A stretch of 64,000 nucleotides of DNA from a phage: the NCBI GenBank assembly GCA_018296565.1, contig GCA_018296565.1_3935.1; one strand, 5' to 3'. The translations under genes and the position numbers were made by a program. Every line of letters starts with the position of its first letter. The stretch's first letter is position 1. Shown here one piece after another: positions 4,427 to 4,812 of the stretch. Below the pieces are notes generated by a model, which saw only the letters and a program-made list of their open reading frames with translations, did no database searches and was not told the origin of the DNA.

Positions 4427-4486
4427 GCCCTGCTATAAGTATTCTTCCTTTCGCTACCGAAGAGTATTTTTAGACAGGGCTTTTTT
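4427..4486 (+). terminator. Long hairpin terminator after tRNA-Cys
   Basis: Outer stem gccctg...cagggc enclosing an imperfect extended stem, followed by TTTTTT. Confidence 0.5.
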
Positions 4487-4551
4487 ACAGAGTTATACTT
4501 TATAAGAAGGCTTATACAGTATGTCTCTGACGTACATTGTGGTTTCTCCTT

Positions 4552-4575
4552 GACGGTCTCTGTACCGTCTTTTTT
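4552..4575 (+). terminator. Rho-independent terminator at end of tRNA region
   Basis: Hairpin gacggt-ctctgt-accgtc followed by TTTTTT. Confidence 0.6.
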
Positions 4576-4611
4576 AAGGAGAAACATGGTTAATTATTTG
4601 GAGAAAACATA

Positions 4612-4812
4612 ATGAGTGAGACCGTTTATAAAGAACTTTATGAAGCTAACAAAAAGCTGGAATTTATGCAGAACACTATCATGGCAATTGCAGACAGATT
4701 ATCTGTAGCAACAGGTATTGATATTAAAGAGGCATCTATGGATGCACTTCTTGATGCTGTTGATGCTAAATTCGAAGTTAAGAAAGAAGAGACTGCTACA
4801 GACTCTGAATAA
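4612..4812 (+). CDS. Hypothetical small protein upstream of terminase
   Basis: 66 aa, helical and acidic. Preceded by an 8-codon mini-ORF at about 4586-4612 whose stop overlaps this ATG (TAATG). Confidence 0.45.
   Translation: MSETVYKELYEANKKLEFMQNTIMAIADRLSVATGIDIKEASMDALLDAVDAKFEVKKEETATDSE

Follow-up and report, generated by a model that had tools for sequence, protein, structure and literature searches.

The DNA analysed here is a 64,000-nucleotide stretch (hereafter, the window) of a phage in GenBank assembly GCA_018296565.1 (contig GCA_018296565.1_3935.1), a Felixounavirus (Felix O1 family; Ounavirinae) that matches KhF1 at 98.6% and Felix O1-like myoviruses at ~98% over 3.1 kb. The window starts with 20 transfer RNA (tRNA) genes, the last of which, tRNA-Cys (4314–4389, + strand; called by ARAGORN, with an Rfam tRNA match of 55.4 bits), is followed by a 149-nt non-coding block at 4427–4575. 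The first gene of the packaging operon, an open reading frame (ORF) of 66 amino acids (aa) at 4612–4812 (+; phrog_4397, E = 6e-41; no match in a Pfam search), begins 36 nt after the end of this block. Next come the gene for the terminase large subunit (TerL; 4834–6435, +; Terminase_6N and Terminase_6C domains; phrog_979) and a Mu-type portal gene, a succession that justifies the label of terminase operon given in a first-pass annotation of this DNA. That annotation, made without database searches, had also described two successive terminators after the last tRNA gene and, behind them, an 8-codon ORF in what resembled a leader-peptide or translational-coupling arrangement controlling entry into the operon. 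Here, we analysed the block and its surroundings, and we propose that it may be a conserved terminator gate combined with a structured RNA at the entrance of the packaging operon.

Terminators and RNA structure in the block

On its 5′ side, the block is bounded by an A/T-rich, unconstrained spacer (4390–4426, +) that is ~60% identical between Felixounavirus and Mooglevirus. It opens with the putative terminator T1 (4427–4486, +), in which a 54-nt interrupted hairpin at 4427–4480 (H1; GCCCTG...CAGGGC, 20 bp, loop CUUUCGCUACC) stands on a GC-rich base (GCCCUG/CAGGGC in the RNA) and runs into six U residues (TTTTTT, 4481–4486). H1 folds at −24.2 kcal/mol (z = −6.6), and none of 200 shuffled sequences folded as well. 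T2 (4552–4575, +) has a 6-bp hairpin with four G-C pairs and a 6-nt loop (GACGGT-CTCTGT-ACCGTC, 4552–4569; −7.1 kcal/mol), again followed by six U residues (TTTTTT, 4570–4575). Both hairpins lie exactly where the first-pass annotation had placed them, and both have the make-up of intrinsic terminators, namely a GC-rich stem-loop directly followed by a U-run. A terminator scan returned T2 as the sole clean + strand call in positions 1–4700 of the window, and missed T1 solely because its loop exceeds 8 nt. The weight for the terminators is nevertheless carried by conservation and covariation and not by the pattern scan, which alone is not significant (6 terminator-like sites versus 3.0 ± 1.8 in shuffles). 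Neither site appears in the terminator table of the Felix O1 genome paper, and the Moogle and Mordin records annotate terminators elsewhere in the genome and none at this block.

T1 and T2 bracket ~65 nt of structured RNA, and the stretch 4390–4640 as a whole folds with z = −6.15. Directly behind T1 lies H2 (4488–4529, +), a predicted 17-bp hairpin with two 1×1 internal loops (−15.4 kcal/mol, z = −5.2), whose 3′ arm is shared with the 5′ arm of an alternative 7-bp hairpin, H2′ (4519–4535, +; GUAUGUC-UCU-GACGUAC, −5.5 kcal/mol). It is followed by the single-stranded tract AUUGUGGUUUCUCCUU (4536–4551, +), the core of which, GUUUCUCCUU at 4542–4551, resembles the 3′ end of 16S ribosomal RNA and is therefore similar to an anti-Shine–Dalgarno (anti-SD) sequence. 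The core, located just 5′ of T2 (GTTTCTCCTT in the DNA), is the perfect reverse complement of AAGGAGAAAC, which follows T2 at 4576–4585 (+). The resulting 10-bp helix around T2, in which AAGGAGAAAC provides the 3′ arm and which we call the clamp, forms together with T2 a 16-bp hairpin of −19.4 kcal/mol (z = −5.9). The AAGGAG motif that the first-pass annotation took for the ribosome-binding site (RBS) of the 8-codon ORF is indeed present at 4576–4581, but its role as such is not supported, as it constitutes an arm of the clamp. In the predicted folds of terminated RNAs, of the window as well as of distant lineages, the tract is unpaired, and the real RBS of the 66-aa ORF (4600–4614) is unpaired in predicted folds too. 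A search with the Rfam 15 covariance models returned only noise (e.g. an S15 leader at 17.6 bits, with a cut-off of 39.5 bits). An antiterminator pairing of GACGUAC (4529–4535) with the 3′ arm of T2 was considered and rejected, as inspection showed that it is not conserved in the sister genera.

The late promoter had been called not obvious in the first-pass annotation. A sigma70-like match does exist (TAGACA-17-TATACT, 4471–4499, +; 10/12 positions, predicted start at ~4506), with its −35 element inside the 3′ arm of H1 and its −10 element inside the 5′ arm of H2. Outside the Felix group, conservation of this match is not robust. It is invariant in the 23 haplotypes described below and is annotated as a promoter in MZ726792 (ASO1B). 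Because a scan found no promoter-like site between T2 and TerL (4576–4834), the packaging operon would be reached only by read-through of T2.

Conservation within and beyond the Felix group

Between Felixounavirus and Mooglevirus, the block is 92.6–95% identical, compared with 63–68% for the DNA of the 66-aa ORF, 87% for TerL DNA and 95% for TerL protein. The tRNAs of the two genera are 55–100% identical, most of them above 85%; judged by sequence identity, the constraint on the block is thus close to that on the tRNAs. T1 taken by itself is 95% identical between genera. Its edges are sharp and coincide with the foot of H1 and the end of the second U-run.

Pairing was followed over 23 distinct haplotypes collected from GenBank, IMG/VR and metagenome loci. 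In this set, 98.4% of the cells expected to pair do so, versus 34–57% when the partners are slid by 1–3 columns, with the caveat, which applies to the shuffle controls, that the sequences are related. H1 is paired in 99.3% of cells and includes one compensatory change from U-A to C-G, found in 6 sequences; H2 (99.5%) shows a compensatory series from A-U through G·U to G-C, while all four bases occur at position 4510 in its loop. H2′ and T2 are both 100% paired, with two wobble-compatible one-sided changes in the former and one wobble-compatible change in the latter. In the clamp (4542–4551 with 4576–4585; 93.9% paired), the 5′ arm is invariant and the 3′ arm changes mainly from A to G opposite U. 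Since such substitutions opposite an invariant U keep RNA pairing and not a DNA palindrome, the clamp probably acts at the RNA level. The tract AUUGUGGUUUCUCCUU is identical in 23/23 haplotypes. The covariation is shallow, as double changes occur in only two pairs (one in H1, one in H2), the other stem changes being wobble-compatible. A metagenome search with the pattern TCGCTACC-N-GAGTYATACTT returned 81 stretches, of which 13 are real, all of types already found.

The stems of T1 and T2 are thus maintained by compensatory or wobble-compatible changes, and their U-runs are kept across genera. This cross-genus conservation supports the earlier proposal of two successive hairpins of the intrinsic-terminator type that separate the tRNA cluster from the 66-aa/TerL/portal operon, and T1 and T2 are very probably genuine conserved terminators.

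A comparable arrangement is found in three lineages, Yersinia phage P778 (TerL 71%), Hafnia phage SarahDanielle and Kolesnikvirus (Hafnia SPARTY and Erwinia FIfi106; TerL 69%), that can be aligned with the window only at the tRNAs and TerL. An alignment of all lineages with MAFFT and RNAalifold misaligned the distant sequences and gave an uninformative consensus, and our cross-lineage statements rest on individual folds and scans. In each of the three, a hairpin, a CUCCUU-type tract and a terminator with its U-run follow one another directly 5′ of the small ORF and TerL. The scan found a terminator at the T2 position in four independent lineages, with stem sequences that all differ: in place of the window's stem there is GGGGC/GCCCC in P778, GTGGCG/CGCCAC in Kolesnikvirus and a 12-bp stem in SarahDanielle, while a U-rich tail of 5–6 U is kept. 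The tract core just 5′ of the terminator reads AGUUUCUCCUUAG in P778, AUUCUCCUUAUU in SarahDanielle and GGUUUCCUUUG in Kolesnikvirus (the UUCCUUU form). By our own estimate, the chance of finding TCTCCTT within ~25 nt 5′ of a terminator is of the order of 1e-3 per lineage.

In P778, a terminator (GCCCAC...GTGGGC and T6) is followed by a hairpin (GAGTC...GACTC), the tract AGTTTCTCCTTAG, the terminator GGGGC-GTATA-GCCCC with its T-run and, finally, AAAGGGGAAC, which pairs with the tract, giving a predicted clamp around an unrelated terminator stem. SarahDanielle, which has kept the module without any tRNA within ~1 kb upstream, carries a terminator (GACCCACA...TGTGGGTC and T6), a hairpin (GTCAAAG-CAA-CTTTGAT), the tract TCTCCTTATT and the 12-bp terminator. 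Kolesnikvirus begins with a long hairpin (loop TATCGCTACC) that has no T-run, continues with GAGTCATACTT (in the window, GAGTTATACTT) and the hairpin GUAUGU-UUCG-GCAUAC, the counterpart of H2′, and ends with the tract GGTTTCCTTTG, the terminator GTGGCG...CGCCAC with a T-run and a third terminator that replaces the clamp partner.

The octamer UCGCUACC (TCGCTACC in the DNA pattern above) is common to the loop of H1 (4448–4459) and that of the long Kolesnikvirus hairpin (~878–886 of locus L011), although the stems differ. Its conservation suggests that the loop is contacted specifically, by a protein or by another loop. The complement, GGTAGCG, is found in tRNA-Ser (1135, + strand) and at one further site, 42964 on the minus strand.

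Several observations concern the genes on either side. The 66-aa ORF lies directly 5′ of TerL in all cases, including the relatives without the RNA block (L040 and L041), and its product evolves fast, with 56% aa identity between genera versus 95% for TerL. We know of no small terminase in Felix O1-like phages, and the 66-aa ORF is a candidate partner of TerL. Upstream, just before T1, a gene for a DUF7217 protein (244–265 aa; 3417–4214) is embedded among the tRNA genes; this protein is labelled a predicted receptor-binding protein in one record and appears to correspond to a structural protein of the Felix O1 paper. As the scan yielded no + strand terminator call in 1–4426, T1 and T2 would close the tRNA/DUF7217 unit, and a virion-protein gene would lie before the terminators, together with the tRNAs. 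The block stands where this unit gives way to the packaging-head operon.

In the 50 kb of Citrobacter phage Moogle that were compared (record positions 15001–65000), nothing aligns with two segments of the tRNA cluster, namely tRNA-Trp with a 134-aa ORF (628–1117) and a pair of ORFs of 80 and 185 aa (2232–3028). Both look like indels, possibly mobile cassettes of the homing-endonuclease type. The spacers at 156–402, 480–580, 1883–1978 and 3275–3305 are 91–97% identical to Mooglevirus, a tRNA-like level. One spacer contains a near-consensus promoter, TTGACA-17-TATAGT (171–199), probably P45 of Felix O1, and the remaining conserved spacers, to which no function is annotated, could carry processing signals or more small RNAs.

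Possible functions of the block

Considering the order and conservation of these elements, we favour a composite reading, to which we assign a probability of about 0.5, in which a conserved terminator gate, combined with a structured RNA, stands before the packaging operon. RNA polymerase would enter from the tRNA cluster, and transcription would probably start at the internal TAGACA-17-TATACT site as well; most polymerases would stop at T1 or T2, leaving the 3′ ends of tRNA precursors and a short RNA ending at 4575, with a length of ~70 nt for a start at the internal promoter and of ~150 nt for transcription from upstream. T2 would then serve as a promoter-proximal gate or attenuator that sets, or times, entry into the late genes. 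In the RNA of polymerases that read through, the tract may clamp onto AAGGAGAAAC, with the U-run looped out, and place a 16-bp hairpin on the 5′ side of the mRNA. Such a clamp would hide both the tract and the decoy SD, would prevent the anti-SD-like tract from pairing, as it otherwise could, with the RBS that the 66-aa ORF really uses (GGAGAAAAC), and may also act as a processing or stabilizing hairpin.

A number of observations weigh against this proposal. T2 taken alone is a modest hairpin (−7.1 kcal/mol), and the high conservation of the block is not unique, because inter-tRNA spacers are 91–94% conserved as well. Promoter matches of the 10/12 type are common (12 found versus 9.1 expected in 4 kb); the scan detected no equivalent of the internal match in P778 or Kolesnikvirus, and SarahDanielle has only 9/12 matches at other offsets. 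H2 spans the −10 element and the predicted start and can form only in RNA already past T1. Because H2 covaries in spite of this position, some functional RNA must come through T1, which sits awkwardly with a simple unit running from the promoter to T2. The clamp cannot be the universal function of the tract either, since its partner is absent in Kolesnikvirus, which has the third terminator there, and weak in SarahDanielle. Moreover, two uncultivated relatives (L040 and L041; TerL 63–64%) have no intergenic element 5′ of the small ORF, and the module, as far as these comparisons reach, is widespread and not universal. Finally, our literature search found no transcriptome, transcription start site or small RNA data for Ounavirinae or Felix O1-like phages. 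According to the Felix O1 genome paper, no modifier of RNA polymerase, no phage RNA polymerase and no phage sigma factor is known, and neither temporal control nor the passage of transcription through the many terminators is understood.

A plainer explanation, which we regard as less likely, is that T1 and T2 are fail-safe tandem terminators, that H1, H2 and the clamp are hairpins for processing by RNase III, E or P or for stabilizing 3′ ends of tRNA precursors, and that the late operon is expressed by constitutive leak-through, with no internal promoter and no regulation. The first + strand terminators to follow the 20 tRNA genes are T1 and T2, and H1, interrupted and 20 bp long, and the clamp, with 16 bp and an asymmetric internal loop, look similar to phage RNase III sites as these are generally known. 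The passage of RNA through T1 that the covariation of H2 calls for, the conservation of other spacers in the tRNA cluster and the lack of promoter conservation across lineages all fit this explanation. What it leaves unexplained is why a CUCCUU-type tract is kept 5′ of a terminator in four lineages whose stems have changed, and why the 5′ arm of the clamp is invariant while the 3′ arm drifts; nor does it fit SarahDanielle, where the module is kept without a nearby upstream tRNA.

The same persistence of the tract, which makes it the best-kept element between lineages with differing stems, is what one usually sees in the seed of a small RNA (sRNA), and in four lineages the tract has the layout of such a seed. 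This raises the unlikely alternative of a trans-acting sRNA of ~70 nt, transcribed from the promoter at 4471–4499 with a start at ~4506 and ending at T2, in which H2′ would be the 5′ hairpin, the tract a single-stranded anti-SD-like seed for the SD regions of host or phage mRNAs, and T2 the terminator with a U-tail, an architecture of the Hfq type. The clean succession of hairpin, tract and terminator in SarahDanielle and P778 and the invariance of the promoter match in the Felix group agree with this, and T1 would insulate the unit. On the other hand, a duplex scan of the window found no conserved trans target, the only perfect complement of the tract is the adjacent cis site, no Rfam family matches, the promoter is unconfirmed in other lineages, and the covariation of H2 favours a longer RNA. 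The RBS region of nrdB (AAGGAGAAAUCACA, 50596–50609) is complementary to 4538–4551 over 14 nt with one G·U pair (−20.2 kcal/mol); we rejected it as a trans target and regard it as a chance match, probably peculiar to Felixounavirus, since Moogle and SUSP1 have kept the tract unchanged but not this site. The broader proposition that the block encodes an Ounavirinae sRNA of either ~70 or ~150 nt, with a tract that mimics the 16S 3′ end and binds SDs in trans, is to our mind improbable. If true, this RNA might damp host translation or autoregulate the adjacent packaging operon, and the AAGGAG behind T2 would be an internal decoy by which the tract of read-through mRNA is kept silent.

Control by a leader peptide, the role proposed in the first-pass annotation, in which translation of the 8-codon ORF, coupled through TAATG, governs both translation of the 66-aa ORF and access to the packaging operon, is very doubtful. 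The ORF does exist as described (4586–4612, +; ATG GTT AAT TAT TTG GAG AAA ACA TAA, MVNYLEKT*), with AAGGAG upstream, and its stop codon (TAA, 4610–4612) overlaps the start of the 66-aa ORF (ATG, 4612–4614). However, among the 51 loci bearing the Felix-group block, ATG or GTG stands at its start in 28/36 Felixounavirus loci and in 0/15 loci of Suspvirus, Mooglevirus or the L034 type. The eight Felixounavirus loci that lack it include Felix O1 itself, which reads AAACGAGATT, FO1a and six more; in an alignment of ten phages from three genera, the ACATGG start context is replaced by ACGAGA in FO1a, CCATTC in Suspvirus and ACACTA or TCACTA in Mooglevirus. The surrounding stretch, 4576–4611, is the least conserved locally (55–67% identity between genera), and the supposed SD lies only 4 nt from the ATG and is buried in the −19.4 kcal/mol helix. 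Being located downstream of both terminators, whose U-runs end at 4486 and 4575, the ORF cannot govern terminator formation as in trp-type attenuation, and its peptide has no regulatory codon runs. Neither does the 66-aa ORF depend on coupling, since it has a well-spaced SD of its own, GGAG at 4600–4603 (+), 8 nt before its ATG; GGAGAAA is conserved in Felixounavirus, Suspvirus and Mooglevirus, and SD-like motifs stand 7–9 nt upstream in other lineages. Of the features expected of translational coupling, only the stop/start overlap is therefore found, as the downstream gene has an independent RBS and the arrangement is not conserved. Natural viable variants without the start codon amount to the experiment, called for in the first-pass annotation, that refutes a role of the mini-ORF, and they largely refute the leader-peptide explanation as a whole. 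Very probably, the mini-ORF is incidental, its ATG being a polymorphic chance codon and its RBS an arm of the clamp.

Least probable of all is a DNA-level element (a packaging site, terminal-repeat boundary, origin or operator) or a minus-strand gene: the block adjoins the terminase gene, its inverted repeats could be protein-binding sites and UAB_Phi87 has a gene, Phi87_146, annotated across it, but its substitutions keep G·U pairing and not DNA palindromes, and the UAB_Phi87 terminal repeat maps ~1.2 kb upstream. The ends of that record share an identical repeat of 542 bp, which corresponds to positions 2696–3237 of the window (the UAB_Phi87 paper gives a direct terminal repeat of 608 bp; PMC4837284), and this location rules out a packaging site or genome terminus at the block. 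The repeat covers the 3′ part of the 185-aa ORF, tRNA-Gln, tRNA-Leu and part of a second tRNA-Gln, so the physical genome end falls inside the tRNA cluster, and on injected linear DNA neither the block nor the terminase operon can be served by promoters to the left of ~2696. Two minus-strand frames were rejected. One of 58 aa (4587–4411), the frame annotated in UAB_Phi87, lacks a start codon in both Moogle and Suspvirus, is broken by a frameshift and stops in the L034 type and accumulates mostly non-synonymous changes; the other, of 14 codons behind the AAGGAG, shows 4 non-synonymous versus 1 synonymous change by manual translation and is not conserved in other lineages. Several GenBank records place protein genes over the block; besides Phi87_146, examples are gene 55 of wV8 (4278–4505, +), which overlaps tRNA-Cys and T1, and an N-terminally extended ORF115 in the Felix O1 record (30328–30603) that reads through T2. 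Such annotations follow frames that are not conserved and are probably artefacts.

The gate that we favour would provide a concrete, testable site for late-gene timing in Felix O1-type phages, be it through antitermination, attenuation or processing, and these phages are widely used in Salmonella typing, detection and biocontrol. An unannotated structured RNA at this place is overwritten by spurious ORFs in current annotations. Should the block serve only for fail-safe termination, the finding would be an ordinary one, and the gain would be a corrected annotation.

Comparison with known regulatory systems

In the late control of phage lambda, transcription from PR′ yields the short 6S transcript ending at the terminator tR′, which is read through upon antitermination by Q. 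The block shares with it the layout, in that a terminator follows shortly after a predicted promoter-like site and lies directly 5′ of the packaging/head operon with no promoter in between; by default, the product would be a short terminated RNA, and late expression would require read-through. Unlike lambda, it has two terminators as well as a conserved anti-SD-like tract and a clamp.

The c4 antisense RNA of P1 and P7 and the CI RNA of P4 lie upstream of their complementary targets on the same transcript, and the target of c4 in P1 is icd, a small ORF with translational coupling to the gene behind it. The block resembles them in having a structured segment located upstream of, and complementary to, an RBS-like site tens of nt downstream on the same strand. 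In contrast, its complementary site flanks a terminator, the ORF is not a conserved one, the sequences are dissimilar, no sign of RNase P processing is seen, and the phage is virulent and has no immunity function.

From the tRNA region of T4 come RNAC and RNAD, small stable RNAs whose role is unknown (PMC3014915). The block is like these in being a conserved, structured non-tRNA region with which a phage tRNA cluster ends; they have not been described as terminator-flanked packaging gates, however. In the T4 genes e, soc and 49, the SD is held in a hairpin in some transcripts and not in others (PMC3014915). Similarly, the block has an SD-like sequence in a stable helix and a promoter-like start inside H2, so that long and short transcripts would fold differently, but the buried SD belongs to a non-conserved mini-ORF, and the real RBS is left free in the predicted folds. 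With trp attenuation, the locus has in common a short ORF near a terminator in a 5′ leader, which here follows the terminators, lacks regulatory codons and is not conserved. On present evidence, the element is assignable to none of these families; it belongs to known kinds, namely intrinsic terminators, a 5′ leader structure and possibly an sRNA, and had gone unannotated until now.

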